A stretch of 64,000 nucleotides of DNA, taken from positions 32,001 through 96,000 of the forward strand of contig CAVTET010000006.1 of assembly GCA_963733675.1 (NCBI GenBank), given 5' to 3'. The number at the start of each line of letters is the position of its first letter. Within the stretch, counting starts at the first letter, position 1. Positions 7,022 through 56,453 of the stretch are shown piece by piece. The position numbers were made by a program, and so were the translations under genes. The DNA comes from an uncultured Methanosarcinaceae archaeon (GTDB lineage Archaea; Halobacteriota; Methanosarcinia; Methanosarcinales; Methanosarcinaceae). The notes beneath the pieces are model-generated. The model was not told where the DNA came from and did not search any database. It saw nothing but the letters and a program-made list of their open reading frames with translations.

Positions 7022-7171
7022 GGTTCCGTTGCAAAAATAATATTTCTGCATTTTGACATTATAATTTTCACCTTTATGTATCATTTTCTTTATAATGAAA
7101 ATGATTAACTTTCCTAATTGTGAAGGTTTTTTCTGATTTTGCAAGAAAGCCAGATTTTTTGCAACGGAACC
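7022..7171. mobile_element. IS6-related MITE, type A copy 1 (150 bp)
   Basis: GGTTCCGTTGCAAAAA ... TTTTTGCAACGGAACC TIRs match the IS6 at 35702-36557. Non-coding; near-identical copies at 7736 and 12440. Confidence 0.92.
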
Positions 7172-7735
7172 ATAATTGCTGCCCAGGGGCTTATGACAAT
7201 GGCGATAATTCTACCTCCTACGGCATGGCCTGAGCTGCCACCTAGAACAGGTATATGAACATCATTATTACAAATGAGACTGCAGCTGATAGTGCTAACA
7301 GTGGTACCTGTTTGGACTTGAGCTATGCGGTCAGCTTCTGTCCTGCATAATACCATATCTGAATCATGATGATCCAAAACGCAATATATGTATGCGGCCT
7401 AAATATCCATCAGGAATGTGCATTTTTTCTCTTCCCTAACTAATTTTAGAACCATCTCCTAAATGTAGATGCAATCTGCATAATCTGTGAAAAAATTTAT
7501 TGTGAAAAAATCAAATTCTGTTTCAAAATGTATTTCTTTAGCGTGTCACTTTTCAATTGGATAATCTTATTCTGTATCAAGAGTTTTCCTAAGAGATCAT
7601 AGAGTATGTTGCCTACACATTAGGTTACTTCATAAATTTGTACAAAAAAATGGATTTAAACAATGAGGTTAACTTATTTCCACATAAATGTTTAACCTAA
7701 ATAATTGACTGAAATACAATTTTGGCAGCAATTAT

Positions 7736-7885
7736 GGTTCCGTTGCAAAAAATCTGGCTTTCTTGCAAAATCAGAAAAAACCTTCACAATTAGGAAAGTT
7801 AATCATTTTCATTATAAAGAAAATGATACATAAAGGTGAAAATTATAATGTCAAAATGCAGAAATATTATTTTTGCAACGGAACC
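7736..7885. mobile_element. IS6-related MITE, type A copy 2 (inverted relative to copy 1)
   Basis: Reverse complement of 7022-7171. Confidence 0.92.
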
Positions 7886-8486
7886 ATAGATAATTATATA
7901 AGGAAATATACTCACTCCTCATTATTAAAATCATATTTAAATAATTATTTTGGAACCTTTATGAAATAAATATTTGATTTTTTGCAAAACATTTGTTTCA
8001 TTATTCAATTCAGGAGAAAAGTGCAGATAATATGGAGTTAATAATTCATAGATCTGGAATAACGATGTAACCTACTTTTGATAGATTATGCGAATCGATA
8101 TAGAATCTTATTACGGAAGACGCATTTTATCGGTACAATATTTTAGAAAAAATAAAAAAGATCAGGAATAAAAAATGCAAGATATAACTTTGAATTATAA
8201 GAAGAAAACAGAAGTTTGGAGCTTATTTATACATTAAGATGTATATGCTTATTTTAAATTTTGGATAAATGAATTTTCAGTTTGGAAAAATCTTTATTTA
8301 ATACTATTTACTGAACTTCACTTTTCTATATAGTATCGATTTTTGGGAATACATTTTTTAAATAATAGTATAAGAATTATAATTTTCAATTTACAATTTA
8401 GGATTTGCAATTTATATAGTAAACACATCTAAATTACATTATTTGATTGTTGTTAACATTACACATAGGTATATGGAGTAACTAAT

Positions 8487-10866
8487 ATGCGGATCGGAGT
8501 ATATATTTGCCACTGCGGACTGAATGTTGCGGGAGTTATAGACGTTGTGGCCTTGCAGGAAATGGCAACTAAACTGGAAGATGTAGTGATTGCTCGGGAA
8601 ATTCAATTTTTGTGTTCCGATTCAGGACAGGAAGGTATTATCAAGGATATAAAGGAAAACAAAATAGAGAGGGTGGTAATAGCCGCCTGTTCCCCCAGGC
8701 TCACGAAAAGACCTTCAGGCATGTAATGGAAAAGGCAGGTTTGAATCCTTATCTTATGGAAATGGTGAACATAAGGGAACAGTGTTCCTGGGTGCACGCC
8801 GGAGATCCACAGATGGCAACTCAGAAAGCCCTTGATCTAATTAGAATGGGAGTTGCAAAGGCCAGGTTTCTGAAGGAACTGAGCGCGACAAGCTCTAAAG
8901 TCAGCAGAAATGTCCTTATTATAGGTGGAGGTGTTGCCGGAATTGAGGCCGCTCTGAACCTCGCAGAGGCTGGTTTTCCTGTAACCATGGTGGAAAAGGA
9001 TTCTACAATTGGGGGTAAAATGGCCCTTATGAATGAAGTATTTCCCACAAACGATTGTTCAATCTGCGTACTTGCCCCTAAAATGACCGAAGTTCAAAAT
9101 CATCCGAACATCACTCTTTATACCTATTCCGAAATAACCGACATTTCAGGGTCTGTTGGGAAATTTCACGTAAAAATTAAACGCAAACCTAGGTTCGTGC
9201 TCGAAAAAGAATGTAAAGGTTGTGTAGATCTCTGTTCAACTGTCTGTCCTGTGGAAATCGAAAATCCTATGGACTACGGGGTAGGAAAGACCAAGGCAAT
9301 ATATATGCCAATTCCTCAAGCTGTTCCTCAGGTAGTGCTTATTGACCCTGATCATTGTGTGGGCTGTGGACTCTGTTCGCAGGCTTGTCCTGCAGATGCT
9401 GTTGATTATGAGCAAAAAACCGAGGACATTGAGTTAGAAGTCGGAGCTGTCATTGTTGCAACTGGGTATCAGCTCTTTGACGCGTCCAGGAAAAAGGAAT
9501 ACGGGTTCGGGAAGTACCCGGATGTTATAACAAATATGCAGCTTGAGCGCATGCTGAACTCTTCAGGACCTACAGGTGGAAGAGTGCTTGTGCCTTCTAC
9601 TGGCAAGCCTCCGAAAAGAGTGGCATTCATTCAGTGTGTGGGATCTAGGGACAAAACCGTTGGAAACGAATATTGTTCAAGGGTCTGCTGCATGTCAGCA
9701 CTCAAGAACGCCCAAATGATCAAGGAACGCTACCCTGATACGGATATCACAATTCATTATATAGATATCAGGGCTGGGGGGAAATGTATGAAGAATATTA
9801 TGTAAGGACTCAAGAAATGGGCGTGGACTTCATCCGCGGGAAGGTTGCCGAAATTTACGTAGGAGAAGACGGTAAGCCTGTAATCCGTTATGAAAATACC
9901 CTTGAGTGCCGGCCCGAGGAAGAGGCCTATGATCTTGTTGTGCTTTCAACAGGTTCTGAACCAAGCAAATCCGCAGAAGGCATCGGAAGGATGTTAAACC
10001 TTTCACGGCGTCAGGATAGATTCTTTGCGAGTGCACATCCTAAAATGCGTCCTGTTGATGCGCCTGTTAGTGGGGTTTTCTTGGCAGGCTGCGCATCTGG
10101 ACCCAAGGAAATTCAGGTTTCGATTGCTCAAGGCAGTGCATGTGCCTCCAAGGTTATGCAGTTGCTTGGAACAGGCGAACTTGAAGCAGATCCAATGGGA
10201 GCTCATGTTGATTCAGAGAAATGTATCGGCTGCAAGACCTGTTTAGAAGTTTGCAAGTTTGGAAAAATTAGCATTGAAGACAAAAAAGCTATAGTAGACG
10301 AGATCTCATGCCATGGTTGCGGAGATTGCAGTGCCGTTTGTCCTGTCGGGGCAATTCAGATGAGAAACTTCGAAAACGAACAGATTCTAGCCCAGGTTCG
10401 GGAGGCAACTGCGAATAAGTCCCAGAGCCCTTTTATTGTGGCATTTCTATGCAACTGGTGCAGTTATGCTTGTGCAGACCTTGCCGGGATGTCCAGGCTC
10501 AGTTATCCAACAAATATCAGAATAATCCGCACAATGTGTTCCGCAAGGGTAAGTCCGGAATTTGTGCTTGAAGCTTTCAAAGGCGGAGCAGACGGGGTAC
10601 TTGTTGCAGGTTGCAGGTTGGATGAATGCCATTACATCTACGGTAATTTTGATGCAAAGCATCGTTTGGACGTCCTGAAAGAAATTCTTACAGAAATCGG
10701 GCTTGATCCTAGAAGGCTCAGAACCCTCTGGATCTCAGCTGCAGAGGGGGAACGTTTCGCAAGCACTATAACCGAGTTTGTGGAAGAACTCAAAGAAATT
10801 GGGTCAATAGGGACTGAACTCCAGAAGGACGAATCAATATCTACATCTGAGGAAGTGGCACAGTGA
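8487..10866 (+). pseudogene. hdrA: Heterodisulfide reductase subunit A with fused C-terminal MvhD domain (HdrA2 type), split by two single-base deletions (about 8701 and 9776-9781)
   Basis: MRIGVYICHCG, NIREQCSWVH, IIGGGVAG, FPTNDCSIC, QCVGSRD, YCSRVCC and the MvhD motifs FLCNWCSY/AGCRLDECHY are spread over three consecutive ORFs. Could be true lesions or sequencing errors. Confidence 0.93.
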
Positions 10867-12398
10867 ACGAAGAATACGACGAACAAAAGACTCACAAACG
10901 TGATGGATGCTGCAGACCCAGAAAAATCGAAACTGAAGAGCCCAAAAAAGAAAAAAATGAAAATGAAAAATCTGAAGCTTGGGGCTACAAACCCGAAGAA
11001 GTTGAAGCAGAGGAGCTTGAATCTGAGGGACTGGAATCTGTAGTGCCCGAAAACAAAGAGGATGAACACCAGGAAAAAATTACTGTCACAAATAGCATGG
11101 ACCTACAGGGTACACATTTTTGCTATAACCAGGCAACAGAAAAGTCCATAAAGACTTTGGATTACGATTACAAGCGATGCAACGGCTGCGGAATCTGCGT
11201 AGAAGTGTGCCCAACAAAAGCCCTTGAACTCGGACCAGTGCATGAAATTGCAACCGGGCTTGATGCTCCTCCGGTGATTATGGACCTAGAGAAGTGCACC
11301 TTTTGCAGGATGTGCGCAAATCTCTGCCCCGTGCATGCCATCACCTTTGATGCTGTAGGAGAGGTTCCGGATGAGAAACAATATCCAAAGTACGATGCAT
11401 ACGTTAATATAAACGAAAAATGCCTTCCATGCGCTCTCTGTGAAGGGGCTTGCCCTCAAAATGCAATCGAAGTCGAGTTTACCTTCCCGAAAAAAGAAGA
11501 AATTGCACCTTTTAAAGAAGGGGCAAAAGGAGAGATAGTAATTGACACTGATAAATGCAATTTCTGCGGAATATGTGCCCGTTTCTGTGACGCTATTATC
11601 ATGCTCGAGCGTGAGCCTACGCCTGAGAACCCTTTGCCTTTCGAACAGATTCTTGTGGATGAGGATAAATGCGACTACTGTGTACTCTGCCAGGAAATCT
11701 GTCCGGAAGAAGCAATAAAAGTCAAAGGGGAGCGTTCCGTTGAGGCCCCTAAAGTTGAAGGAAAAATTAAGGTGGACAAAGCTAAGTGTACACAATGTGG
11801 TCGGTGCAAGGTTGTCTGCCCTTATGATGCAGTAGAGCTGCAAAAACCTATGGAAGGGACACTGAACCTTATATCTGTTAACTTGGATGAATGTGACCCC
11901 CAGGGTTGTCATGGCTGCTTTAATGTCTGCCCCTCTAAACTCTGGTACGTGCCAAAGGACCCCGAAGATCTGCGAAAAATTGCTTTTGTTGAAGATTTCT
12001 GTACTTACTGTGGAGCTTGTGTAAAAGCCTGCCATCTGGCTGCTATCAAAGTGGACAGATCCGATGTTCACCACACAGATATTGCGGATACCCCCTGGGC
12101 TACCCAGTGGAGAGACGCAATTGAGTCCCTTAAAACAGGAGTTAGAAAAGGAGTTGATAGATCAGTATTCCGGAAAATCGATATACTTAAAGGCCAGAAG
12201 TTTATGGGTATAGAATACCCAAGCATTAACGAAGAGATACTTGCAGCCGTGCAGGCAAAAATAGATGCCTTAATACCAGCTCTTAAAAGTGCAAAGGTCA
12301 GAAAACTCTGGGAAACTGAATCCCCTAAAAACGTAGCTGCAGCCGTAAAAAAGAAACTAGAAGGCAGAAAACAAAAAGATTCGAAAATAAAAGTTTGA
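10863..12398 (+). CDS. Polyferredoxin (multiple 4Fe-4S), coupled to hdrA
   Basis: About ten CxxCxxCxxxCP-type motifs; GTGA overlap with the hdrA stop. Confidence 0.93.
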   Translation: MNEEYDEQKTHKRDGCCRPRKIETEEPKKEKNENEKSEAWGYKPEEVEAEELESEGLESVVPENKEDEHQEKITVTNSMDLQGTHFCYNQATEKSIKTLDYDYKRCNGCGICVEVCPTKALELGPVHEIATGLDAPPVIMDLEKCTFCRMCANLCPVHAITFDAVGEVPDEKQYPKYDAYVNINEKCLPCALCEGACPQNAIEVEFTFPKKEEIAPFKEGAKGEIVIDTDKCNFCGICARFCDAIIMLEREPTPENPLPFEQILVDEDKCDYCVLCQEICPEEAIKVKGERSVEAPKVEGKIKVDKAKCTQCGRCKVVCPYDAVELQKPMEGTLNLISVNLDECDPQGCHGCFNVCPSKLWYVPKDPEDLRKIAFVEDFCTYCGACVKACHLAAIKVDRSDVHHTDIADTPWATQWRDAIESLKTGVRKGVDRSVFRKIDILKGQKFMGIEYPSINEEILAAVQAKIDALIPALKSAKVRKLWETESPKNVAAAVKKKLEGRKQKDSKIKV

Positions 12399-12439
12399 AG
12401 TACAGAAGCTGAAGATAAAAAAGGGATAATGCAAAATAG

Positions 12440-12589
12440 GGTTCCGTTGCAAAAAATCTGGCTTTCTTGCAAAATCCGAAAAAACCTTCACAATTAGGAA
12501 AGTTAATCATTTTCTTTCTAATGAAAATGATACATAAAGGTGAAAATTATAATATCAAAATGCAGAAATATTATTTTTGCAACGGAACC
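12440..12589. mobile_element. IS6-related MITE, type A copy 3
   Basis: Same TIRs and same 150-bp body as copy 2, with a few substitutions. Confidence 0.92.
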
Positions 12590-12761
12590 GGTTTAATTCA
12601 CCCTGCTCTAATTTAAGTTGATATTTTATTCCAGCAAGCTGTGGATCATTTTTACGCCGACTTTTATCTTTTTCAATCTGTATTTGTTCAGGCTCCTCTA
12701 CTCCAAGCTCCTGAGATCTAAGACTTTCACCTATTTCTAATATACGTTCTACCATACGCAT
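12590..12761 (-). pseudogene. 5' fragment of an unidentified gene, cut off by MITE A3
   Basis: Coding-like ORF MRMVERILEIGESL... runs directly into the MITE end and stops inside it. Confidence 0.45.
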
Positions 12762-13174
12762 TTTTTATTTAAGTTACTATTTTTTGCATCTAGTTTCACT
12801 TTTCATGCAGCGGTTTTTAAGCTTTGTTTTCTTGTAATCTATTTTGCTAACAAAAAATATATTAACGTAGTACCAATGGAAGCATTAAAATTACGACGAA
12901 AATAGAAAAAATTAAAATGGAAAGGTAATTATTATCAAGATGGTCTTAATTTAATTGAAAATAGATTGTTGCACATTCATAAATAAGTTAATTTGACTAT
13001 TTCAATTTAAAATTTCTTCCACATTTTCAGGTATTCTATATGCTAAAAACGCTTGAGCATAGAAATTAGTAAATTTTCTTCAAATGCAATAAATGTACTC
13101 TTTTTGGGATTTATCTATAACTTGTGGACACGAAAAAATGATATATAAATTTAGAATAAAAGTGGAAAAAAGTT

Positions 13175-14014
13175 TCAATCTCCCCTGAGTTCTTTTGAGC
13201 GTTTATTTTCCCTCATTTCTTTTGAGCGTTCACTTGCCCTTATTACTGCGCTCATAAATGCAGCCCTGATTCCGGCTTCTTCAAGAGAATGAATGCCTTG
13301 AATCGTAGTTCCGCCAGGAGAAGTGACCATATCCTTGAGTTCTCCTGGATGTAGACCTGTTTCAAGAACCATTTTTGCAGCTCCAAGCACAGTCTGTGCT
13401 GCCAGTGTCTGGGCACTTTTTCTATCCATTCCTTCCAGAACAGCTCCATCGGCCATTGCCTCGATAACAGGAAAAATGAATGCTGGCCCGCTTCCTGAAA
13501 GGCCAGTAACAGTATCCATTAGAGATTCCGGCACCTGGACTGCTGTACCAACTGCCGAAAATATCTCGAGAGTAATCTTCAGGTCTGCAGGAGTGGCATT
13601 CTTGCCAAGAGCAATTCCTGAAGCAGCTTCCAAAACTGTGGCTGCAATATTCGGCATTACACGTATAATCCTGGTGCCTTTGAGGAGGGCATGCTCATAA
13701 GTGAAAAGAGGCACTCCTGCAGCAATCGAAATCACGAGTTTGTCGGAAGTTATGTAATCCCTTAAATCTGCAAGCACTGATTCGAGTTTATCGGGTTTCA
13801 CTGCAAGAATAAGAATATCCGATTTCTGAACAATAATAACATTGTCCATCGATACCATTATACCCATCTCTGCTTGCAGATCTCTCAGAAAAGGCTCATA
13901 TACATCACTTGCACCAATATTTTCATTTTTTACGATTTCGGCTTTAATAATGCCCTTAATAAGAGCAGATCCCATTTTTCCTGCTCCTATAAATCCTATA
14001 TTTCGGTTTTCCAT
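13175..14014 (-). CDS. proC: Pyrroline-5-carboxylate reductase
   Basis: GFIGAGKMG, LAVKP, RVMPN, GLSGSGPAF and VTSPGGTT motifs. Confidence 0.97.
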   Translation of the reverse strand: MENRNIGFIGAGKMGSALIKGIIKAEIVKNENIGASDVYEPFLRDLQAEMGIMVSMDNVIIVQKSDILILAVKPDKLESVLADLRDYITSDKLVISIAAGVPLFTYEHALLKGTRIIRVMPNIAATVLEAASGIALGKNATPADLKITLEIFSAVGTAVQVPESLMDTVTGLSGSGPAFIFPVIEAMADGAVLEGMDRKSAQTLAAQTVLGAAKMVLETGLHPGELKDMVTSPGGTTIQGIHSLEEAGIRAAFMSAVIRASERSKEMRENKRSKELRGD

Positions 14015-14164
14015 AAATTATCCTCCTCATTTCCAACGATAAATATGATATAGACAGATACTGTCTATATTAATTGTAAAATAATTTCACAGAACATCAT
14101 AGGATCGAGATAAGATTCCAGATGATAAGAAATTTATCTAAACTTTTCAAGCCTATATATGGCT

Positions 14165-32614: not shown

Positions 32615-33978
32615 GGTACTTCCCTTTCCTAAAGTTTCTTTCTGATCTTGCGAAATTATCAAAGCTGTGGCTTTGTATCCCAAATAGGCAGAATTTAGGG
32701 TGTTGCAAGTGTTACTCTCTTGCTTTTCTGGCTGATCTGCACAAAACAAATATCGTGAGTTTGTTGATGTAATTACTTTAAGTTAATTGTATGGAAAATT
32801 GTTTCTGAACAAAAGCTACTCATGCACAAATTTTTTTAAGTTAAAAACTAATTAAACATTAGTAATATTTTTTTATGATTTTTGGGATCTTCAACATTTA
32901 GTGCTAATTTAGTCCCTAAAAGCAATGCAAATTAATTTCATATCAAATTCTGATCGTGCCCTTGAGTCATTATAGAAGATTTCGATAAACCTCTGATTTT
33001 CAAGAGTAATTTATGTATTATTTAGAAAGTTTATTAATAGCAATCACTCGTTCATCATCTTATGACCCAAAAGTTAAAAGCTTATTTAATTGGCTTGGTA
33101 CCACTTACTTCTTAACCAGAGATGAAGTATTCACCCATTACGTTTCATCGCGGCGTTGCTCCTGCTGAAAGCACTCTAGTTTTCGATTAGATAGATACTA
33201 ATGCAGTTATCCCAAAAATCTGTCTCGACAAATGCGAGCTAAATTTGAATTTTTTGCGAAAGATAGGAGACCAATGAAAAACAGAAACTTCAATCCGTCA
33301 ATATTGGCCAAATACCTCGCTAGTTTAGGATTCTAGCTTTATGAGGACCTGAGCCCAACAGGCATCGAAGTACATTACTTGCAAGTACGCACTTATGGAG
33401 GCATTATTAGCATGGGCACTTTGCACGTACAATCGTTGAATTTTCATGAATTGTGTAAAATCCGTCATTCATTGAAAGTTAGATTAATTTTTAAGCTACT
33501 TCCATATTGAGAAAATATATGAAATTTTTGTGTACATCTGCGGAAAATGGAAACAAATAAACTATCGATCTCATTTACTTTCTTTATCCACCACATATGA
33601 ATTAGACCAGTTGGTTCTACTACATGAATTTAATTAAATAAAATTTATTTAATTAGCTAAATAATTATCTAAATTAATTATATCAAAAACTTCTTCTGAA
33701 CAAAGGAACTCCCACATCAAATGTAGTAAAATTTAACAATATTTAAATATTACCAATGTTAGTATTATATCAGGTGTCGTTTATGGCTGGTTTAACAGCG
33801 ATGGCATTAACTATACTAAGATTACTGAACCGTAATTTGTTATTTAATGGCTTGAGTTTTTTAAATAAATATGAAAATATAGTATTCAATACATTTTTGC
33901 AATCTATACTAAGTAATGATGCAGATGATAGAGCTCTGCAGAGAAAATAGAATATGTCATTAGCAAATCAGACAGAAT

Positions 33979-35248: not shown

Positions 35249-35701
35249 TTATAAAAGGTTTCTCTGAGATTCTAGAAACTGCTGCTTTAGTGATTTAAAA
35301 AGGAATGGGAACTCCTCTTTAAGTTGTATGAGGAGTTCTTCATCTAATTTTACATTATAAAGCCCTCTAACTTTAGATAGCTGGTCAATTGATAAATTGA
35401 GAGCTCCTCTCAGATTAGCTCCTTCAAGATTAGTTCCTTCAAGTTTAGCCCTAAACAAGTTCGTTCCTTGAAGATTAACTTCTTTAAGGTTAGCTCCTTT
35501 AAGGTGAGATCCTACAAGATTAGCTCCATAAAAATTAGCTTTTATAAAATCAGTTTCTTTAAGGTTAGCTTCTCTTAAATTAGCTCCTTGAAGTTTAGTT
35601 TCTCTAAGATTAGCTCTCTCAAGGTTAGCCCCCTCAAGGTCAGCTCTTTTAAGGTCAGCTCCGTGAAGATCAGCTTTTATCAAAGTAGTTGCTCTAAAAT
35701 T
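35249..35701 (-). pseudogene. Pentapeptide-repeat protein, 3' part only; 5' end removed at the IS6 boundary
   Basis: A(N/D)LxG/E pentapeptide repeats continue up to the IS6 TIR at 35702. Confidence 0.85.
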
Positions 35702-36557
35702 GGTTCCGTTGCGAAAAATTCAAAAAAATATGTAAATCTATAAGTAATGAATAAAAATCAAAATATTCAAAGAAAATGCACTAACATTATAAAACCATAC
35801 CAAACAATTGATTAATGTATTTGACTTCATTACGAACCGAGTAATTGAGATTATTGACTTGTCCTTTTTTGACCATATTCATAGCTTCAATTCCTTTTAA
35901 AGTCTTATTAGCAGATTGAAAAGACTGAAATCCTAACATTGGATTAACGATTCGCTTTATAAATCTATGATCTTGTTCTATAATGTTATTCAAATACTTG
36001 ATTTGTCTAATGCCTACGTTTTTAGGTAGTATTTTATCATTTTTCAGTTTATCTATAGCAGGTGGATAAGCTGGATTCTTATCAACTGTTATTACTCTTG
36101 AAATTTGATTATGATTAGAACTCAAAGCTTTCTTAAAGAATCTATTCGCTGCTATTCTATTTCGTTTTGCACTTAACATGAAATCAATTGTATCTCCATT
36201 TGAGTCAACTGCTCGGTAAAAATATTTCCATTTACTTTTTATTTTGATATAGGTTTCATCAACTCTCTACGAATCATTTGTGGGTCTTAAATGTCTTCTT
36301 ATTCTTCGTTTCTAGTTCAGGAAAATATTGATGTACCCATCTCATTATAGTACTGGGATCAACTTGAATTCCTCTTTCTATCATCATTTCCTTTAAACTT
36401 CTATAGCTCAATGGGTATTTTAAGTACCATCTTACATTCAATAAGATAATTTCTCCTTCATAATGCTTCCATTTAAAGGAATGAGATAGCATATTACTAT
36501 CTTTGGTTTTCTTTTTATTTTATTATATCATTAGAAAAGATTTTTTGCAACGGAACC
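35702..36557 (-). mobile_element. IS6-family insertion sequence (856 bp) with a disrupted transposase (35787-36492)
   Basis: TIRs GGTTCCGTTGC(G/A)AAAA. Transposase motifs FKWKHY..VRWYLKYPLSYR, DETYIK, YRAVDS.GDTIDF, TVDKNPAY and YLNNIIEQDHR. A +1 frameshift near 36310 and a TAG in place of Trp at about 36268-36270. Confidence 0.96.
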
Positions 36558-36666
36558 GCAAATCTTCTGTTTCAACAAATACATTAATAATGAGTTATGA
36601 CTATTCACTTACGCTTCAGCTTCACTTTTACATTTCATTTAATTTGTCCTTAATCAAGGTGAATTT

Positions 36667-45948: not shown

Positions 45949-46080
45949 ACTGTTTACAGCTATATTTTGACATCATTTGAAAATTAATTAATGTTTCTAT
46001 CGTAAAATAAGACTCTAAAATTGAGTTCCTCAAACATTTAATATTTTTTATATATAGGAGGTTTTATCAATAGTTTAGAG

Positions 46081-46229
46081 GGTACTGTTGTAAAAATAAT
46101 TTTACTGCCTTTTTAGGTTATAACTATTGCTTTTTGTATCATTATTGACCTGTTTATGGCATATAAATATCTTATTTGTGATGTTTTTTACTTGTTTTGT
46201 AAAATAGCCAGATTTTTTGCAACGGAACC
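46081..46229. mobile_element. IS6-related MITE, type B copy 1 (149 bp)
   Basis: GGTACTGTTGTAAAAATAAT ... AGCCAGATTTTTTGCAACGGAACC; an inverted near-identical copy lies at 56305. Confidence 0.92.
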
Positions 46230-46236
46230 GTTTCCT

Positions 46237-48248: not shown

Positions 48249-48641
48249 TGTTTTTGGTAAATTATAATCTTTTTTGAATTTCTTTTATTTATCAGGGAGG
48301 AAGAAAACTATCAAAATTGAATGTAAAATCGTAATCTTTCAGTTAGGTAAAAACAATATCAATAGCTATCTTAATTATAATTCAATAGGCAAATTTCATA
48401 GAGTTAGCTTTTTAATATTGGCTATTGATTCTTTTTTTCTTTTTTTATTAATCAGACACATCAATGATATCCAAATCAATAGCAATAAACTCCTAACTTT
48501 TTAAATTCCGATTTTAACTATGAGACCTATCATACTTTATTTTGCATCATAAGTGTGTAAGTCCTAAAATAAATATGATTTTGTCTATAATTATAGATGC
48601 TTTATATTTTATAGTGAATTTGGATCAGCTCTTAAATTTCG

Positions 48642-48682
48642 TTATATATATATATATACGCATATATATATATATATATATA
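48642..48682. repeat. Interrupted (AT)n microsatellite in the DUF302 promoter region
   Basis: TATATATATATATATA-CGC-ATATATATATATATATATATA, directly visible. Confidence 0.9.
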
Positions 48683-48704
48683 ATTTTATGGAGGAAAAGA
48701 AAAC

Positions 48705-49199
48705 ATGACTATCACAAAAGTCCAGATCGATTGATTCAGCGTGATATCTTCCAAGCCATTTGAAGTGATCGTGGCAGCTCTAGAAGCAGCTGTTGGGCCC
48801 CAAATATGGTCAAATTCGTGGAAGCAATTCAGTTGCGCACTAACCTTTGCTGAACTGAAGAATGTGATTCATAGGAGCCTGGGTAGAACGGGGCTAATGA
48901 TGTTCATGGAATTCGATCTCGGCGCTATTTTGCGTAAGGAAAACGGGCTCAACACGCCGAAAGTCGTGCGTTTTTTGATCGGCAATCCGCTCATCATGAA
49001 AGAAATGGTAAAGCATATTCCCGATGCTGGATCATATGCACCGGTTACAATTCTGATAGATGAGCGGCCAGACGGCGTGTATTTGTCGTATGACAAGATA
49101 GCCAGTCTTCTGGCTCCATACGGAAACCCCGAAGCTCTAGTAGTTGCTAGGGATCTAGACTCGAAAATCGAGTGCCTTCTTCGAGAGTTTGTAGTTTAA
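48705..49199 (+). pseudogene. DUF302-family protein with a premature TGA at codon 10 and a probable compensated frameshift segment
   Basis: GGAGG precedes ATG 48705: MTITKVQID*FSVISSKPF; then IGNPLIMKEM..AGSYAPVTILIDE. Confidence 0.8.
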
Positions 49200-49629
49200 A
49201 GATCCCGAAAAATATTAAATAGCATCATATTTTTAAAGAAAAAAAATTGTCAAATCAAATCAGGAATTTTAATGGCTAATTTGAGACCTTCTGATAGTAA
49301 CCACGCTTAAATATAATTATGTTTAATATTTAAAACAACTTATTTTAAGAAAGTAAATTTAGAAATATGATCACTTTTAAACCTTATAATTATTTTGAAT
49401 ACACACAAAATGGCGAAGAGTCAGATTTTTGCCTATGCGTCTGTAAAATCAATCATTCCATTTCATATGGGAATAGCCAAGTTTCTATCGATTACATCCC
49501 CAGTAAATGCAAAAAAAGGTATTAAAAAAGCATAGCGAAATTCAATAAATCCAAAAGCCATCGATTTTGATTAAATTAATTTTTAAAAATTAAAAAAAGG
49601 AATCTCATATCAGAAAAGATTAATTTGAT

Positions 49630-49756
49630 GGTTCCGTTGCAAAAATCCTTTCTAATGATACAATAGAATAAAAAGAAAACATAAGATAGCATATTACTAT
49701 CTTTGGTTTTCTTTTTATTCTATTGTATCATTAGAAAGGATTTTTGCAACGGAACC
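49630..49756. mobile_element. 127-bp fold-back (palindromic) mini-IS6
   Basis: 51-bp perfect inverted arms, 2 mismatches, 7 more paired bases and a 7-nt loop. The arm sequence equals the 5' end of the IS6 (about 36481-36557). Confidence 0.93.
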
Positions 49757-50271
49757 CGGCCCACCACAGGGCTCCACAGAAAACACTCTCCAGAGGTCAG
49801 AAGAAAGCCAGATTTGACTTTATGAATATTAACTACATTTGACCCTAGCAAACTCTTACTCTCTTGATTGTTGAGGTCCTAAAAATTATAGAATTTAAAG
49901 GCTAGACAAAATTGCGCATAACCATTAACTCTTCACCCACTGTATTTTATAGAACTGATAGTGCACTACAGTATCATAAAGTTCTGCAAAATCTGATTAA
50001 CTCTATGTTCTTTTTCTGTCACTACAAAATATAGAATTTATCGTTTTGTTTATGCGGAAGTTTTCATACAAAAACTATGTATCTTGTATTAAGACACCTT
50101 TACTGTTTAGAGTAGCTAATAATTATTGTTCAATGTTAAAATCTTCCTTAGTGAATGATTTTTTGTTTAGAAACTGTTTTTCTGATGAATTATTTTAAAT
50201 AATATATTTAATTGATATATAATTGCATTCATTAAAATTAATAAAAAGGAAATCAAAAGGAGTTCGAACAA

Positions 50272-50670
50272 ATGAAAAAGACACTTAGTGTTTTGCTAGT
50301 AATTTGTTTTTTAATGTCTGTGACCGCTGCAATAGTAAGTGCAGAAAACGGGAATAGTAAAGAAATAGCTATGAAAAAAGTAGTGGCTATGAAGACTGAC
50401 GACGGTAAAGATATAGCAATGGGGAAAGTAATGGCTATGACGACCGACGATGGTAACGAAATTGCTATGGGAAAAGTAGCAGCTATGGAGATAGAGGGTG
50501 GTAACGCTATAGCTATGGGAAAAGTAATGGGTATAAAGACCGATGAAGGTAAAATAATAGCTATGAAAAAAGTAAAAGCTATGAAAACCGACGATGGTAA
50601 AGTTATAGTTATGAAAAAAGTAGTAGCTGTAAAGACCGATGATGGTAAAGAGGTACCTATGGCAGCGTAG
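50272..50670 (+). CDS. Secreted Met/Lys-rich protein made of 16-aa tandem repeats
   Basis: AAGGAG RBS, signal peptide ending VSA, and six full repeats of consensus K(E/D/I)IAM(G/K)KVxAMKTDDG plus a partial one. Confidence 0.85.
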   Translation: MKKTLSVLLVICFLMSVTAAIVSAENGNSKEIAMKKVVAMKTDDGKDIAMGKVMAMTTDDGNEIAMGKVAAMEIEGGNAIAMGKVMGIKTDEGKIIAMKKVKAMKTDDGKVIVMKKVVAVKTDDGKEVPMAA

Positions 50671-51543
50671 GGTTATGAAGACAGAAAATAATAAATTAAA
50701 TTTCTAGAATAAACGTATATTCAATTTTGAAAGTAATCGATTAAAAGTCTATAAATACTAAAGAGAATTTTGAATAAATCTCAATTTTAGTTGGTATTTA
50801 TAAAACCTATATAAAAAATTCATTGAAAATCAGAGATTTATCAAATTCTCTAAATTTTAATTTTGCTTAGAGTACTATATTATTATCTTGTACATGTTTC
50901 TGTTTTGGGATTGTGGTTTATGGTAATTAGTTCCAGATGTTCCAGGAGTTCCATGTGTTCTAGGAGTTCCATAGGCTCCAGGGGTTCTAGATCTGGAATC
51001 GTTTCTTATTACTGATAGCAACTAGGAAATCCAGAGATTTAGACACAAAAACTATGCATAGAATTTCAGTATTAAATAATAGTAAAACTCACAGAACAGA
51101 AAGAAATAATGCTAAAATCCAATATTCCCTTCATTTGATAAAGTGCTACTTTTATTGCAAACGATGTCAACGACAATTCAAATATAATCCAATAAATGGT
51201 ACACTAGAATGCGCTGGTAAATTTCTAAGCTGTGATCGTATATGATATAAATTAAAATATCCGTCGAAAAAAAAAGCATATAATTTTCGTTGAAATAGAT
51301 CGGAGAAAATACTGAAGAGTGCCGCTCCTTCTTATTATAAGGCTTTGGATTATCAGTAAATTCTATTTTTATTGATATGGACCCTAACATATAGGAAAAT
51401 AAAAATATAGCCATCAATTCAAGGCAGCTTCTCAGATATTTATTCTCAATGCCTTGAAAGTGGCTATGATGCTGTTTTATCCTACTCTCAATAGCTCTTA
51501 GATCCAGTTACTGTTCTAATTAGCTTAATCAGTTATGATGGTG

Positions 51544-53805
51544 TCACAAATAGCCATTCACTAGTGGTGCCCTATAAGGATACAAGTTACCAGGGTAAGG
51601 GTATAAGTTACCAGGGTAAGGGTATAAGTTACCAGGGTAAGGGTACAAGTTACTAGCTTGAGAAGTTACTTTGATTGTAACAGTCTTTGATGCTATATTA
51701 TAATTTACGAGATCAGTTGGTATGAATAAAACATTCAACATTTGTGTACCTACATTCAATACAGTTCCTGCTGATGGGATATATGCAAATGTTCCAGGTA
51801 CCGTAGCAGTCGCATCTAGTTGAGTACTACTCAATGGTGTTCCATAGACTATGTCAGCAGGGTTACTCCAGGTAATTGTAGGAGTAGTATTTTGAGGAGT
51901 TGTTGTCAAAACATTTATTGTAGCGAGCATTGAATTTGTGCCGTTTGTGTTGCTTACAGTCTCGTTAACGGTATAGACTCCTGCAGCAAGATAGGTATGC
52001 GTTGGATTCGGTTCAGTTGAAGTAGCTCCGTCTCCAAAGTCCCATCCCCATCCTGTGGCATCTGTCGAGAGGTCTGTAAATTGAACCGTAAGGGGAACAT
52101 TACCATTGGTTGTGTTGGTATCGAAATTCGCAATGGGTAAACCTTTTTCAGAACTACTTTCTGGATCAGTAAATGCCTTGATGCACACATCAGTATTTGA
52201 GTAACCCGGCTCTGTTGTTATATCGGTCCAGGTATTTCCATCAGAACTTACAAAACTTTCGGATGTATTTGCTGTTGCCTGACTACTATGGCCACTGATA
52301 GGCATTTCCACAGGAATCGGGTATTGATATGTAGGGTTTGTAAGCTCCAGTACTACTGAAAATTTTTGGCCGGCGTTGAGCTGAACTTCGGAATTCAGTG
52401 GAACTGTATGATAACCTGCACTTGAAATTGTTCCACTTTGGGTAAGAGCAGGACCAGTTTGACTAATGGGGTTGGATCCTATATTATTGTAGATATTAAT
52501 TACATAATTGCAGTTTAGGTCTGTTGTATAGAAACTTATTGCTTTGAGAACTTCATTAGAATTTGCAGTAAAGATGTTTGCACCCCAGCCAGTTGTGGGA
52601 TTAGTTTGCGATGTGTTAATTTGCTGGGTCCATCCAAGTGGATCGTATTGGTAGATGTTTGTATAATCTTTAGGGTTTTCAGCCGTGAATTGTGTATTCA
52701 TATCGTATCCCACCTTAGAATCATAATAGGAAACATAGAAATACCCATTATCATTGTTTACATTACCCCAATCTGCTGCAGTTGTACCCCAGCTATTTTT
52801 TATGATAAATGCTCCATCTCCGGGTGGAGTTGTGGAGAAATTATTTTTGCTATAAGAGTCGTCCCAGCCAACAATGGTCACTGCATGGTCAGAAGCTGTT
52901 GTTCCACTATAGTAATAACCGTATGTGTTTTGGTTATAACTAGTAGTATCGGTGGGGTCAAAATAAAGGGCAGTAGCTACTGCTCCATAATTCATAATTG
53001 CTTCTTTTATGTCCTGATTGTCCGTCGGACCATTTCTGTTCGGAAGGAAAGTTACGTTTTGTACATGTTTATGTACAGGAAGTCCGAGCTCACTGGACGA
53101 AAAACTTGATGTAGCACTATAAGGATCATCGCTGGTGTTTACAGGTCCGCTCCAACGAGCTTCGTAAGCAGTTGACATCACAAAGTCTCCCCCGTCACTG
53201 GGACCGCGATCAAAACCTTGCGGGCTATTTGCAGAAGAAAGCACGTTTTTAATATTATTTTCTGAAAAACTCCAGGATTCTCCTGGCATTAAATATGATT
53301 CAAGGGATCCGTCAGTTGCAAATGTCCAACAAGAACCTGCAGAACCCTGATTTTTCACAGGAGTTACCCTGTTCAGAGTTCGTAAGTCATAGAAAGTTGG
53401 AATAGATGTGTTTGCGGAAGCATATACGTCTGGGACTGAAGTATGTTTGAGATGGCTAAGGTCTACAGGTGAAGGTGCGAAACCAGATTTATGTCCAACG
53501 GAGGAGTGTGTTATTTTATAGACAGATTTGTTATTCAGGTATTGGGTAAATTTAGGGTTTTCTGGTGCAAGTCCTATATTTAAAAAAAATTTAGTTTGGT
53601 TTACAATATCTTTGTGAATAAATTTGTGATCAGTTGGTACGGGTATTGGTTTATTTTCTTCTGAAAATCCTGCATATGCCATTGCTATTGATGAACCTAT
53701 GACTGAGAACAAAATCAAGAATCCAGTGAAAATCATTAATTTGTTTAGTATGTTAACATCATTATTTATAGTTTGATTTTTTTTCATATTTATCTCCTTA
53801 TCCAT
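51544..53805 (-). CDS. Secreted papain-like (C1A) cysteine protease with lectin-like, PKD and C-terminal beta-sandwich domains
   Basis: YDLR, NQGSAGSCWTF, DHAVTIVGWDD, IKNSWG and the PKD motif WDFGDG; N-terminal TM/signal segment. Confidence 0.95.
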   Translation of the reverse strand: MDKEINMKKNQTINNDVNILNKLMIFTGFLILFSVIGSSIAMAYAGFSEENKPIPVPTDHKFIHKDIVNQTKFFLNIGLAPENPKFTQYLNNKSVYKITHSSVGHKSGFAPSPVDLSHLKHTSVPDVYASANTSIPTFYDLRTLNRVTPVKNQGSAGSCWTFATDGSLESYLMPGESWSFSENNIKNVLSSANSPQGFDRGPSDGGDFVMSTAYEARWSGPVNTSDDPYSATSSFSSSELGLPVHKHVQNVTFLPNRNGPTDNQDIKEAIMNYGAVATALYFDPTDTTSYNQNTYGYYYSGTTASDHAVTIVGWDDSYSKNNFSTTPPGDGAFIIKNSWGTTAADWGNVNNDNGYFYVSYYDSKVGYDMNTQFTAENPKDYTNIYQYDPLGWTQQINTSQTNPTTGWGANIFTANSNEVLKAISFYTTDLNCNYVINIYNNIGSNPISQTGPALTQSGTISSAGYHTVPLNSEVQLNAGQKFSVVLELTNPTYQYPIPVEMPISGHSSQATANTSESFVSSDGNTWTDITTEPGYSNTDVCIKAFTDPESSSEKGLPIANFDTNTTNGNVPLTVQFTDLSTDATGWGWDFGDGATSTEPNPTHTYLAAGVYTVNETVSNTNGTNSMLATINVLTTTPQNTTPTITWSNPADIVYGTPLSSTQLDATATVPGTFAYIPSAGTVLNVGTQMLNVLFIPTDLVNYNIASKTVTIKVTSQASNLYPYPGNLYPYPGNLYPYPGNLYPYRAPLVNGYL
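51574..51651 (-). repeat. 21-bp tandem repeat encoding (NLYPYPG)x3 + NLYPY
   Basis: ACCAGGGTAAGGGTA(T/C)AAGTT units on the + strand. Confidence 0.95.
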
Positions 53806-54698
53806 TTATTTAAGAATGTTTCATTAACTCTTATCCTTCAATTTATAAATATTTTAAAAATTATCTAGTCTCAAAAACTGAAATCACTTCTTAAATTTTA
53901 TATAGTCTTTGATAGCTATTTATCAGAGATTAAAAATGAATAATCACTCTCTAGTATCCAATTTTGGAGTTGATAGAGCTTACTAATTCTAGTAATTTCT
54001 GATAGTAATTTCTATATATTTCAATTTTTTTCTAAATATATTGTATAATGTTTGGTGCATAACTTATACAATAATCTATCAATGTGTTGATTCTATATAT
54101 AATTATTTTTTGAACAATCACGTTTCATGTTTTATAGATATTAATATAATTAGACATATATATTATATTGAAACGGGCTAAGAAATAAAATTTCTACAGA
54201 TTGAAACTTTCATCTGAAAAATATCAACAGCTTTTGGTTGCTGAAACGAGATTAAAAAGTGCTAAAATTTACAGAAGGATTTAAGCATTTGGGATGCTTA
54301 AGATTGGTTATCTAAACGCATAGGTTGCTGAATTTTTTCCAGTTTTTATAAACACAATTTCAAATTGGGTATTTATTCAGTTAGTGTGCCAACTTTTCTG
54401 TAAAAACACAAATATCAAGAAGTTGTGAGAAAGGAAATCACACCTCTTAAGAATCCGATTACACAAATTATGTCTAAATTTAGCCTTGGATTTATAGCAA
54501 ATTTTCAATACTATCAAAGTCAGCAGTATACTGAAAGGTCTGTAACAATAACTGTTCTCCATTGTTTTTCTTTTATTACAAAATAGGACTTCTTGTTTTC
54601 ACTAATGCAGTGATTTTATAGCATAAACTATGCATTATATCTTAAATCATTATCAAAGGTCTAATGTTACTAAGTGACTCTTTTTGAAGGGAAAAGTT

Positions 54699-56063
54699 AT
54701 GAAAATCAAATCCATTAATCCTTATACTGAAGAAGTAGTAATGGATATATGATTCGTTTTCTATTAAGGAATGTAGGAACCATATTGAAAAATCTCGGGC
54801 TATGTTTTCAGGATGGTGTTCGTTGTCTGCCGAGGGACTGGCAAAATATTTTTTAAATGTTGGTGGAGTGCTCAGGCTGAATGTCGATAATTATGCTAAG
54901 ATTATTACGACGGAAATGGGAAAACCTATCAGACAGTCGAGAAACGAAGTTCAAAAATGTGCTTGGCTCTGTGACTATTACGCAGAAAATGCGGCTAGAT
55001 TATTGAAAGATGAGCTTGTAGATATCGGTGTTGAGAAAAGCTATGTGACTTTTGAACCTGTTGGAGTTATTTTCGGAATCATGCCCTGGAATTTCCCATT
55101 TTGGCAGGTTTTCAGGTTTGCAGTACCTGCAATGTGTGTAGGAAATGTCTGTGTGGTCAAGCATGCTTCAAATGTACCAAGGTCAGCTTTAGAGATTGAG
55201 AAGGTTTTCTGGAGGCTGGATTCCAGAAACACATTTTCAAGACTCTGTTAATTGACTTAAAAACTGCCATGCGAATTATTGCAGAAGATCGAGTGAATGG
55301 TGTATCGCTTACTGGCAGCATAACTGCGGGCTTGGAAATAGGGAGACTTGTGGGAGGAATTATCAAACCTCTGGTACTGGAATTGGGAGGATCTGGTCCT
55401 TTCATAGTGCTTGAAGATGCTGATATCGAGAGGGCTGCGCAGGTTGCTATGGAGTCCCGTTTTATCAATACCGGACAGAGCTGTATTGCTGCCAAGAGAT
55501 TTATTGTTGTGGAAGACGTTGTAGTTGATTTTATCGAAGCATTTAAACTCAATATCCAAAAACTGAAAATTGGGGGTCCTATGGATGAGGAAACAGATAT
55601 AGGACCTCTGGCAAAAAAGGAATTTGTTCACAGTCTTGAAAAGGTTCTGAAAGACGCGAGAAAGAAAGGAGCAGAACCCCAAACTTACGGGAAGAAATGT
55701 GGAAAAGGCTTTTTCTTCAATCCTACTATTATTCCTGCAGCTAGTACAGATATGAAAGCATGCAATCTTGAGGTTTTTGGGCCTATTGCACCGGTTATCA
55801 TTGCAAAGGACGAAGAGGAAGCAGTGATAATTGCTAACTCAACAGAGTTTGGGCTCGGGGCTGAGATCTGGTCTGGAGACCTTGATAGAGCTGAAAGGGT
55901 AGCAAAACGGATTCAGTCAGGATTTGTAGCTATAAATGGTATGGTTAAATCTGATCCCAGACTGCCTTTTGGCGGGGTCAAGAAGTCGGGAATTTGGAGG
56001 GAGCTTTCCCACTATGGGCTCAAGGAATTTGTGAATATAAAAACTGTCGTGGTTAACAAATGA
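54699..56063 (+). pseudogene. NAD(P)-dependent aldehyde dehydrogenase (succinate-semialdehyde dehydrogenase-like), frameshifted at about 54740 and 55207
   Basis: MKIKSINPYT / IMPWNFPFWQ..KHASNVP / LTGS..LELGGS..NTGQSCIAAKR..EVFGP..PFGGVKKSG in three pieces. Confidence 0.92.
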
Positions 56064-56099
56064 AGGGGTTCTGAATAGCCTTACTAACTAAGGATCATG

Positions 56100-56275
56100 T
56101 TCCGCATCCCGTATCCATTCATAATTTCGGGCTGGTTAACAGTGATTTTATGAGGTAAATAGTCTCCTGATGTAAAGATCAGTAATAAGGAACAACATCG
56201 GATATCTGAGCATCGTAATCTTCTGGATGATGGAGAGTCGAATTTTTTGTAGGTTGTACAGGAATCATAACAATA
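56100..56275 (-). pseudogene. Class I SAM methyltransferase, 5' remnant
   Basis: Minus strand reads YDAQISDVVPYY*SLHQETIYLIK...*MDTGCGT. Confidence 0.6.
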
Positions 56276-56304
56276 GATCCTTTGAATTCTAAGATAAGTA
56301 AAGT

Positions 56305-56453
56305 GGTTCCGTTGCAAAAAATCTGGCTATTTTACAAAACAAGTAAGAAACATCACAAATAAGATATTTATATGCCATAAACAGGTCAATAATGATACAA
56401 AAAGTAATAGTTATAACCTAAAAAGGCAGTAAAATTATTTTTGCAACAGTACC
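56305..56453. mobile_element. IS6-related MITE, type B copy 2 (149 bp)
   Basis: Reverse complement of 46081-46229 with a few substitutions. Confidence 0.92.

Follow-up and report, generated by a model that had tools for sequence, protein, structure and literature searches.

Five MITEs lie in the window, by which we mean the whole 64,000-nucleotide stretch of Methanosarcinaceae DNA that was analyzed. Three of them are of type A and measure 150 bp each: e1 (7022..7171, plus strand), e2 (7736..7885, minus strand), which has the sequence of e1 (100% identity) in inverted orientation, and e3 (12440..12589, minus strand), which is 96.7% identical. The other two are of type B, measure 149 bp and are 98% identical to each other: e4 (46081..46229, plus strand), which has one degenerate terminus (GGTACTGTTGTAAAAA), and e5 (56305..56453, minus strand). 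A preliminary description had proposed these two types with exactly these coordinates, and alignment in a common orientation bears it out, with all five copies full-length and collinear. Identity between types A and B is 72.7-73.4% for the window copies, and the invariant columns of their joint alignment are AAAAATAAT, TTATAA, TGTATCATT, TTGTGA and AGCCAGATTTTTTGCAACGGAACC. All five copies are intergenic, lying between the main open reading frames.

The MITE termini (GGTTCCGTTGCAAAAA / TTTTTGCAACGGAACC) match the ends of an 856-bp IS6-family element at 35702..36557 on the minus strand. This IS copy is full-length but broken, its transposase frame being split into ORFs at 36274-36492 (72 aa) and 35787-36179 (130 aa). 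Terminal repeats common to the MITEs and this IS, as claimed earlier, were recovered: one end shares 16 bp and the opposite end 19-20 bp, also with the 108 full-length IS copies of the genome. Between the A and B interiors and the IS interior no similarity was detected (local alignment score of 22 vs a shuffle mean of 24-25), in agreement with the earlier statement that the interior is not a simple deletion of the IS. The count of seven related elements in 64 kb also stands and is completed by a 127-bp element at 49630..49756, in which the transposase-proximal IS end is present twice in inverted orientation. It is a near-perfect palindrome (hairpin of -87 kcal/mol, z of -22), with about 95% identity to that IS end over 77 nt; judged by its sequence, it is a third, IS-derived MITE type.

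Several window elements coincide with breaks in synteny to sister genomes. The left flank of e1 is syntenic with G019:C87 as far as window position 7020, while its right end adjoins a gene fragment (7172..7446, minus strand) that is cut off by e1; its translation suggests a truncated CbiM-like membrane-protein paralog. Six other cbiM-like copies, 84-89% identical to the fragment, run leftward past this junction, and the flanks of e1 (AAAAACAA / ATAATTGC) carry no 8-bp duplication. Part of the DNA between e1 and e2 (7551..7735) is inverted relative to G019, where its counterpart (G019:C87:20140-20325, opposite strand) lies about 0.6 kb beyond the ortholog of the e1 left flank in the downstream direction. 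Together with 12 bp of flank, e1 and e2 form a perfect inverted repeat of 162 nt (7022-7183 / 7724-7885). At e4 a synteny block with G051:C429 stops exactly at 46080, at e5 a match to G051:C312 begins at 56451, and at the IS a block with G019:C35 and G048:C35 starts at 36560.

The partner IS and the genome-wide repeat family

The transposase of the partner IS, of about 234 aa, matches the NCBIfam model transpos_IS6 (NF033587) with 283.9 bits against a cutoff of 125, as well as Pfam DDE_Tnp_IS240 (PF13610; E 6e-49). Bacterial IS6 members are described as being about 0.8 kb long and having an E-DH---K signature and termini with GG at the start and G at position 7 (PMC6807381), and the 856 bp of the present IS agree with that length. 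Here the transposase motif reads IIEQDHRSIKR, which is the bacterial signature, and the IS terminus GGTTCCG... fits the terminal pattern. By these matches the partner IS is a bacterial-type (IS240-like) member of the IS6/IS26 family. The "archaeal IS6" clades (a-d, Harmer and Hall 2019; ISH14/ISH29, ISC774, ISPfu1, ISMja1) share with it the IS6 name and archaeal hosts, but differ in their transposase signature: E--F---K-R replaces E-DH---K, and identity to bacterial transposases is reported as at most 25% (PMC6807381). Membership in these clades was ruled out by the bacterial motif and by 65-67% identity, over 98% of the length, to IS6 transposases encoded by plasmids of Bacillus mycoides and Alicyclobacillus. 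Table 5 of PMC6807381 contains no Methanosarcina IS.

These plasmid-borne elements of the IS240 clade resemble the present system at their ends as well. Both ends of the two Bacillus/Alicyclobacillus loci examined carry GGTTCTGGTGCAAA, except that the Alicyclobacillus copy has one additional mismatch on one side; the oldest MITE subfamily in the archaeal genome has the matching terminus variant. The present system differs in its archaeal host, in IS termini that are shifted to GGTTCCGTTGCAAAAA and in a far higher copy number.

The source genome (G000; 15 contigs, 92% completeness) holds 97 MITE loci on eight contigs, of which 67 are full-length and 30 partial, next to the 108 full-length IS copies. 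The high genome-wide copy number expected from the window is thereby borne out, and the elements are far from confined to it. A search for intact transposases with the same terminal repeats, which had been advised, was positive: 51/108 IS copies carry a transposase ORF of at least 220 aa. When the whole genome was scanned with the 16-mer terminus, allowing up to two mismatches, 413 sites were found that pair into 168 bounded elements. Two size classes dominate these: 50 elements measure 140-159 bp and 110 measure 840-869 bp, and such terminus-bounded elements are far above chance level. Some MITE subfamilies end in GGTTCTGGTGCA or GGTTGTGGTGCA; their IS partner in this genome is one decayed remnant (C3:155317), none being full-length. 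The subterminal TATCATT motif that had been noted in both element types holds up for the IS, where it is conserved about 32 bp from one end (31 or 32 bp in 88/108 copies, 33 bp in two more). The likeness to the MITEs does not extend to its position, since the distance differs there (57-58 in 39/67 copies). Across the whole genome the 7-mer is present 0.4 times per kb, so that the motif is weak as a sign of a functional site common to both.

One might suppose that the repeats are functional elements selected by the host, such as regulatory RNAs, protein-binding sites or structural elements, and that their IS6-like ends are incidental. Such a role would suit their tightly kept length (140-152 bp in the 67 full-length copies and 148-151 bp in most), the interior blocks common to A and B and the intergenic position of the window copies. 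Against it, the pairing of the two termini is the only one conserved across 62 distinct copies, among which no conserved interior structure was found, and conservation peaks in the terminal 30 bp or so and is lowest in the centre. Presence and absence also differ between sister species, and the two termini, which match the IS over 16-19 bp, co-vary. We consider a host function very improbable as an explanation of the family.

Target duplications and their counterparts in sister species

Perfect flanking repeats of 8 bp were found at 2/67 MITEs and 5/108 ISs, compared with about 0-0.1 at control offsets, and by the flank sequences the target duplication of both element types is 8 bp long. About 96% of the MITE copies thus have no flanking repeat, which is in itself typical of the IS6 family. 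Apart from a few chance 8-mer matches, the flanks of different MITE copies are unrelated, with one exception: in some pairs the left flank of one copy equals the right flank of another, which we term a split duplication. Six such MITE-MITE pairs were observed vs 0.17-0.25 expected, and five IS-IS pairs vs 0.6-1.0 expected. The flank pattern is the same in ISs and MITEs. Where both members lie on the same contig they are oppositely oriented (6/6), and members are near-nearest relatives of each other (100%, 98%, 98%, 96% and 95% identity). No partner was found for 86% of the flanks.

Four split pairs were checked in outgroups; every genome in these comparisons is apparently a draft or metagenome-derived assembly. 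For three pairs, sister genomes have one unbroken copy of the target: G051 for one pair, G019 and G048 for another, and G051 for the last, where G019 and G048 also show the adjacency; the fourth pair gave no outgroup information. In the source genome the target halves, each adjoining a MITE, are separated by 36 kb or by 45.5 kb, or lie on different contigs. One of these targets belongs to e3, which bears one copy of the duplicated 8-mer (GGTTTAAT, 12590..12597, plus strand), the other copy adjoining the MITE G000:C1:357172-357321. In G051:C449, GATTTAAT is present once and the two flanks adjoin it without a break. In addition, a MITE with an 8-bp duplication (C1:357844-357993) corresponds to a clean empty site in G051, so that the search for orthologous empty sites suggested earlier yielded one such site besides the three intact targets. 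The three rearrangements and the simple insertion are species-specific and younger than the split from genomes that are 90-96% identical.

That assembly errors at repeats scrambled the flanks seems barely conceivable to us. The fragmented outgroup drafts and the 15 contigs of a source genome at 92% completeness would leave room for errors, but mis-joins predict reciprocal flank swaps, of which none was seen among the 11 split pairs, and they cannot create an 8-bp duplication. Moreover, the intact targets agree across three different outgroup assemblies, and both e3 junctions are spanned by error-free contigs of run X1, which is possibly the source sample.

A more serious objection is that all copies arose as simple insertions with 8-bp repeats, which were later lost or split by recombination and gene conversion among some 200 copies. 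Homologies of 150 bp or 856 bp in about 100 copies each offer ample substrate for this, and the 12-bp flank beside e2 seems, by comparison with G019, to have been converted to that of e1. Close inverted MITE pairs (<1.5 kb) have a split duplication in 0/9 cases although four of them are 100% identical, old subfamilies included, which points to gene conversion there rather than fresh hops. Furthermore, none of the three verified events could be traced back to its donor site, owing to repetitive flanks or to multiple rearrangement of the region. A simple insertion that later underwent homologous recombination with a different inverted copy would therefore look just like them. However, recombination between two duplicated insertions predicts reciprocal exchange, which was found in 0/11 split pairs. 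Intact duplications are nearly absent even among the youngest copies, those with a nearest neighbour of at least 99% identity (1/21 MITEs, 3/43 ISs), and the characterized IS6-family members are described as forming cointegrates only (PMC6807381, PMC4471558). On balance we hold this explanation to be unlikely. The argument from the youngest copies could in turn be weakened by gene conversion, through which old copies may seem young.

Age, proposed mechanism and relation to known systems

Recent amplification, as proposed in the preliminary description, applies to part of the family. Nearest-neighbour identity is at least 99% in 21/67 MITEs; yet the lowest values are about 0.81, mean pairwise identity inside subfamilies is about 0.90-0.92, a sister species has the ortholog of one old copy and the family is present in 16/24 sampled Methanosarcina congeners. 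By these comparisons it is Methanosarcina-wide and of mixed age. Among these congeners (G001-G024), all seven IS-positive genomes also give MITE matches, as do 9/17 IS-negative ones, mostly with few. The latter figure counts against mobilization in trans by a co-resident IS.

It could be asked whether the MITEs are inert relics of past IS6 activity that are homogenized by gene conversion and no longer transpose in this lineage. The congeners with MITEs and no match to the IS6 transposase, the GGTTCTGGTGCA and GGTTGTGGTGCA subfamilies without a full-length IS partner and a mean identity of merely about 0.91 within subfamilies would agree with this. We nevertheless judge it quite improbable, given 51 intact transposase genes with matching ends, the 21 copies that have a nearly identical relative and the four species-specific events that postdate the split from the sister genomes.

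We consider it probable that the MITE family is moved in trans by the co-resident IS240-like IS6 transposase, most likely by copy-in with an 8-bp staggered cut. Each MITE has an interior that is non-coding and unrelated to the IS, bounded on both sides by an IS6-type terminal inverted repeat. The high-copy, bacterial-type IS6/IS26-family enzyme would act on these ends as IS26 does, by replicative strand transfer into a target cut with an 8-bp stagger. Within one chromosome, such copy-in would produce a second copy together with an inversion (or a deletion) instead of a simple insertion, and the duplicated 8-mer would thereby be split between two copies. Events between chromosome copies, resolved by homologous recombination, may be the source of the small number of simple insertions that do have an 8-bp repeat beside them. 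We infer the identity of the moving protein from the shared ends, the duplication length, the flank pattern and the co-occurrence of both elements, and we likewise infer that the rearrangements arose in one replicative step. An exclusively replicative, cointegrate-forming transposition would account for the scarcity of intact repeats and for the split repeats at inverted pairs; so would insertion with later recombination.

In a wider proposal, to which we give even chances, an IS6 of the bacterial IS240 type was acquired by Methanosarcina and gave rise to the MITE lineages, both would move by copy-in only, and the MITEs would be a main engine of rearrangement. Every intrachromosomal hop of a 150-bp MITE would then be an inversion or deletion, and in Methanosarcina of soil and peat the MITEs would be a main cause of rearranged chromosomes and of lost genes, the cbiM-like paralog cut at window position 7172 being one example of such loss. 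The host is polyploid, and the rare simple insertions would need a polyploid host that resolves cointegrates between chromosomes. If true, this would be the first natural evidence of a MITE as a substrate for IS26-type replicative transposition.

The matched 8-mer logic used here is that applied to IS26 (PMC4471558). As described there, intramolecular copy-in of IS26 "in trans" likewise involves an 8-bp target duplication, direct repeats seldom flank the element, and an inverted segment is bracketed by two copies of opposite orientation that carry matched 8-mers. That case concerns an autonomous IS on enterobacterial resistance plasmids, whereas the present one concerns a MITE on an archaeal chromosome and was checked against intact targets in sister species.

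The earlier remark that few IS6 MITEs have been described is accurate in number, as only two are reported in ISfinder, MITEBth2 of Bacillus thuringiensis and MITEHarch3 of a haloarchaeon (PMC6807381), with sizes of 227 and 336 bp (PMC7986276). The kind is nevertheless already catalogued, in one case from an archaeon; IS6 MITEs as such are known and the Methanosarcina family, which is not among the ISfinder entries as reported in these two sources, is a new member. Like the present elements, both are non-autonomous, have IS6-family ends and lack a transposase. Compared by description only, the present family differs in its size of 149-150 bp, its roughly 100 loci per genome and its at least three subfamilies, as well as in its partner, an IS240-like bacterial-type IS in an archaeon. 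MITEs of another replicative, cointegrate-forming transposase family, as described in PMC4133298, PMC13367494 and PMC6199540, are alike in mode but differ in a 5-bp duplication and in the resolvase system of their parent transposons.

MITE types A and B and their partner insertion sequence

All five MITEs of the preliminary description are full-length and collinear in a common-orientation alignment, with the ends as described. Type A comprises e1 (7022-7171, plus strand), e2 (7736-7885, minus strand) and e3 (12440-12589, minus strand), while type B comprises e4 (46081-46229, plus strand) and e5 (56305-56453, minus strand). The division into two types held as well: A copies are 96.7-100% identical to one another, the two B copies 98%, and A and B share ~73% identity. 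Both types and the 856-bp IS6-family insertion sequence (hereafter the IS) terminate in GGTTCCGTTGCAAAAA / TTTTTGCAACGGAACC; MITEs and IS match over 16 bp at one terminus and over 19-20 bp at the second. The window MITEs are all located between main ORFs (5/5). The transposase frame of the window IS copy (35702-36557) lies on the minus strand and is disrupted, leaving ORFs of 72 and 130 aa. A 144-aa ORF with pentapeptide-type repeats (ANLxxANLxx...; 35249-35683, minus strand) terminates at the left terminus of this copy. In a near-perfect 127-bp palindrome at 49630-49756, the transposase-proximal IS end is present twice, in inverted orientation; its size class amounts to two elements in the whole genome.

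The window corresponds to positions 32001-96000 of contig C6 in the source genome (G000; 3.92 Mb, 15 contigs). According to BLAST, this genome contains 97 MITE loci, 67 of them full-length, which bears out the high copy number proposed from the window. The IS is represented by 108 full-length copies, and another 50 matches to it are partial. A scan for the termini only, independent of BLAST, returned two size classes: 50 elements measure 140-159 bp, and 110 measure 840-869 bp. Of the 108 IS copies, 51 have an ORF that reaches 220 aa or more, with 234 aa as the usual length (46 distinct sequences), so that the intact transposase looked for in the preliminary description is abundant. The MITEs fall into 48 A-like and 19 B-like copies, with a mean identity of 0.90-0.92 inside the main clusters. 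Nearest neighbours are at least 99% identical for 21/67 MITEs and 43/108 ISs, and the lowest values are 0.81 (MITE) and 85% (IS). Activity was therefore both old and recent, and the suggested recent amplification describes only part of the history. An old A-like MITE at C4:732928-733071 occupies an orthologous position in the sister Methanosarcina genome G048 (C111, ~11884-12031) and was thus fixed before the split of these species.

The interior of the MITEs is no more similar to the IS than shuffled controls, and an origin as IS deletion derivatives was rejected, in agreement with the first assessment. The motif TATCATT, previously noted in both IS and MITE, does occur in both; it was rejected as evidence of a shared binding site, since its distances to the ends differ and the 7-mer is common (0.4 per kb). 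A conserved RNA or DNA secondary structure was likewise rejected: across 62 distinct copies only the terminus-terminus pairing is conserved, and this pairing largely accounts for the single-sequence structure z-scores of -6.4 (A) and -4.8 (B).

The protein of one of the 51 IS copies scores 284 bits against NCBIfam transpos_IS6 (cutoff 125) and matches Pfam DDE_Tnp_IS240 with an E of 6e-49. 'Archaeal IS6' transposases are at most 25% identical to bacterial ones and display E--F---K-R, compared with E-DH---K in bacterial transposases (Harmer and Hall, PMC6807381); the archaeal table of that work (Table 5) holds no Methanosarcina IS. Given the transposase motif IIEQDHRSIKR, the GG at the tip and the G at position 7 of the IS termini, and the 65-67% identity, across 98% of the protein, to plasmid-borne IS6 transposases of Bacillus mycoides and Alicyclobacillus fastidiosus, we classify the IS on sequence grounds as a bacterial-type IS6/IS26-family element that is resident in an archaeon, documenting that such an element can thrive there.

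Within the A-like group, an older sub-lineage has both termini changed jointly, to GGTTCTGGTGCA...TGCACCAGAACC or GGTTGTGGTGCA. The two bacterial loci inspected terminate in GGTTCTGGTGCAAA; the Alicyclobacillus copy has a single additional mismatch at one of its ends. In G000, this type of terminus is confined to the old MITE sub-lineage and found in none of the full-length IS copies. At C3:155317 lies the decayed remnant of an IS6 element, which has a GGTTGTGATGCAAAAA end. On the basis of the Bacillus-like terminus in old MITEs and of this remnant, changes in the MITE termini seem to have followed those of successive IS variants. The retention of the Bacillus-like terminus by the oldest subfamily bears on the co-evolution of transposase-end specificity.

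Split target duplications and pre-insertion sites

Perfect 8-bp flanking repeats are present at 2/67 MITEs and 5/108 ISs (0-0.1 at control offsets), and the youngest copies with an intact repeat number 1/21 MITEs and 3/43 ISs. Split 8-mers, where the two occurrences of an 8-bp target repeat lie next to different element copies, were identified by matching the left 8-mer of one copy to the right 8-mer of another, with control offsets providing the expectation. Six MITE-MITE pairs were found vs 0.17-0.25 expected, and five IS-IS pairs vs 0.6-1.0. In five of the split MITE pairs the members are closely related (identities of 100%, 98%, 98%, 96% and 95%); the remaining pair is of low complexity and may be due to chance. 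In all six split pairs that share a contig, the two members are oppositely oriented. For IS26, He et al. interpreted the same matched-8-mer signature as the outcome of intramolecular replicative transposition 'in trans' (PMC4471558).

Four split pairs were compared with the closest sampled congeners, with flank identities of ~95-96% for G051 and ~90-92% for G019 and G048. For the pair of e3 and the MITE at C1:357172-357321, the two MITE junctions of G000 lie on separate contigs and each has GGTTTAAT, and in G051:C449 both MITE-abutting flanks are contiguous with a single GATTTAAT at the joint. The MITEs at C4:336582 (minus strand) and C4:372541 (plus strand), separated by 36 kb, show 100% identity; their flanks are contiguous over a single ATTTATGT in G019:C40 and a single ATTTATGG in G048:C66. 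The type B pair at C4:687110 (plus strand) and C4:732660 (minus strand), 45.5 kb apart, corresponds to contiguous flanks around a single TCTTTTCT in G051:C462, and the same adjacency is found in G019:C39 and G048:C85. The relevant flanks of the pair C1:585107 / C1:675513 had no match in four sister genomes at E<=1e-90. A search for empty sites, as proposed earlier, also revealed a clean one in G051 for the MITE at C1:357844-357993, which has a perfect repeat.

On the most economical interpretation, the MITE ends are used in trans by the IS6 transposase for copy-in strand transfer. Inside a single chromosome, copy-in would generate a new inverted copy together with an inversion, or else a deletion, so that intact target repeats would be rare from birth. 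The main rival, simple insertion followed by homologous recombination, predicts reciprocal flank exchange, which was seen in none of the 11 split pairs. It stays a less probable alternative, since attempts to trace the donor sites of verified pairs ended in repetitive or rearranged sequence: the remaining two flanks of the C4:336582/372541 pair are multi-copy, and for the C4:687110/732660 pair G048:C111 has several nested rearrangements around three B copies.

Under copy-in transposition, the chromosome would display the effect of this mechanism over evolutionary time, with intact target repeats almost absent, many inversions and truncated genes. IS26 and, reportedly, Tn3-derived TIMEs are the closest mechanistic analogues of this MITE/IS system. 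IS26-type elements are clinically important, and to our knowledge the copy-in mechanism has been studied nearly exclusively with autonomous IS on plasmids. Here, a natural system provides more than 100 IS copies and ~100 minimal two-end substrates on one chromosome, with pre-insertion sites kept in sister genomes.

Synteny blocks shared with the sister genomes stop at most 1-3 bp from the element boundaries in the window. They do so on either side of the e1...e2 unit, at e3, and on one side of e4, of e5 and of the IS. These repeats are expected breakpoints in the assembly and comparison of Methanosarcina genomes. The ~230 bp to the left of e5 (56075-56304) are a repeat that occurs at two places in G048, where the match stops exactly at the MITE boundary. 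Among the sequencing runs with public contigs, X1, which may be the source sample, spans both junctions of e3 without mismatch. Contigs of X9 and X10 end at the e3 boundaries, as unitigs do at repeats, and are uninformative on presence, absence or polymorphism. Summed depth over the e3 MITE does not equal copy number. RNA runs matched no more than small shares of the window.

Close inverted pairs

Adjacent MITE pairs less than 1.5 kb apart are inverted in 9 of 11 cases, and no split repeat was found in the inverted pairs at this distance. Four inverted pairs with a spacing of 0.5-1 kb are 100% identical, old sub-lineages included (C1:281651/282785, C1:1138187/1139023, C1:357172/357844 and e1/e2), and closely spaced inverted pairs are mutually 100% identical even where they are just 80-83% identical to type A. 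These patterns clearly point to gene conversion acting on the MITEs as well.

The perfect inverted repeat 7022-7183 / 7724-7885 continues 12 bp (ATAATTGCTGCC) past the right ends of e1 and e2, making this pair the only one among the 8 close inverted MITE pairs examined in which identity runs past the element. Since the G019 ortholog of the e2 flank reads ATAATTCTTGCC, not ATAATTGCTGCC, the e2 flank in G000 looks converted to the e1 (cbiM-derived) flank. A one-step inversion was rejected for e1/e2: the arrangement and the inner segment 7551-7735, inverted relative to G019, would fit, but the expected split 8-mer is missing and the right ends have 12 bp in common instead. A truncated membrane-protein paralog, which we take from its sequence rather than from a family search to be CbiM-like, lies at 7172-7446 and is cut exactly at the MITE end; six other copies in the genome are 84-89% identical to it. 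The truncation looks like a MITE-associated deletion or rearrangement. Precise end-to-end junctions of IS and MITE were rejected as signs of targeted insertion, as the abutting cases are, from their coordinates, nested or truncated insertions at internal positions.

Distribution and known IS6-family MITEs

Two IS6-family MITEs, MITEBth2 and MITEHarch3, are recorded in ISfinder (PMC6807381), with lengths of 227 and 336 bp (PMC7986276). The kind is thus already known, but rare. A large MITE census places Methanosarcina spelaei among the MITE-richest archaea, its text assigning these MITEs to no IS family (PMC11602168 and preprint), and the supplementary sequence files of that study may hold the present elements as anonymous entries. 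The literature searches turned up no account of this IS, or of MITEs of the IS6 family, from Methanosarcina. What the present system adds is a natural, outgroup-verified signature of probable replicative rearrangement that is borne by a MITE, together with a partner IS of bacterial origin.

Type A matches were obtained in 16 of 24 sampled congeners, and only ~29-nt matches at chance level outside the genus. Of 58 other congeners, 24 have the transposase, which is greatly expanded in a few of them (G005, G074, G070, G001 and G048). Across genomes G001-G024, MITE matches are present in all seven transposase-positive genomes and in 9 of the 17 transposase-negative ones, where they are mostly few or weak (10 in G004, 8 in G020). 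Four congeners, G004 (complete, 4.6 Mb), G020, G023 and G024, have 5-10 MITE matches and no IS6 transposase match at E<=1e-20; their MITEs look like orphans whose partner IS has been lost.

When one genome of each prokaryote species was scanned for exact occurrences of the 24-nt MITE end, 72 stretches were obtained. Of these, 67 come from records labelled Methanosarcina or Methanosarcinaceae, one from a record labelled no further than Methanosarcinales, and four from a single Ignavibacteria-labelled MAG. The latter matches (L057, L058, L064 and L104) are exact, lie on 2-5 kb contigs and probably reflect a binning error, that is, mis-binned Methanosarcina DNA. A separate dispersed repeat family of ~140 bp has ~100 matches across G000 at 70-85% identity (query: positions 1398-1538 of stretch L020, G019:C87); one example lies in the window at 33469-33551 (G000:C6:65469-65551).
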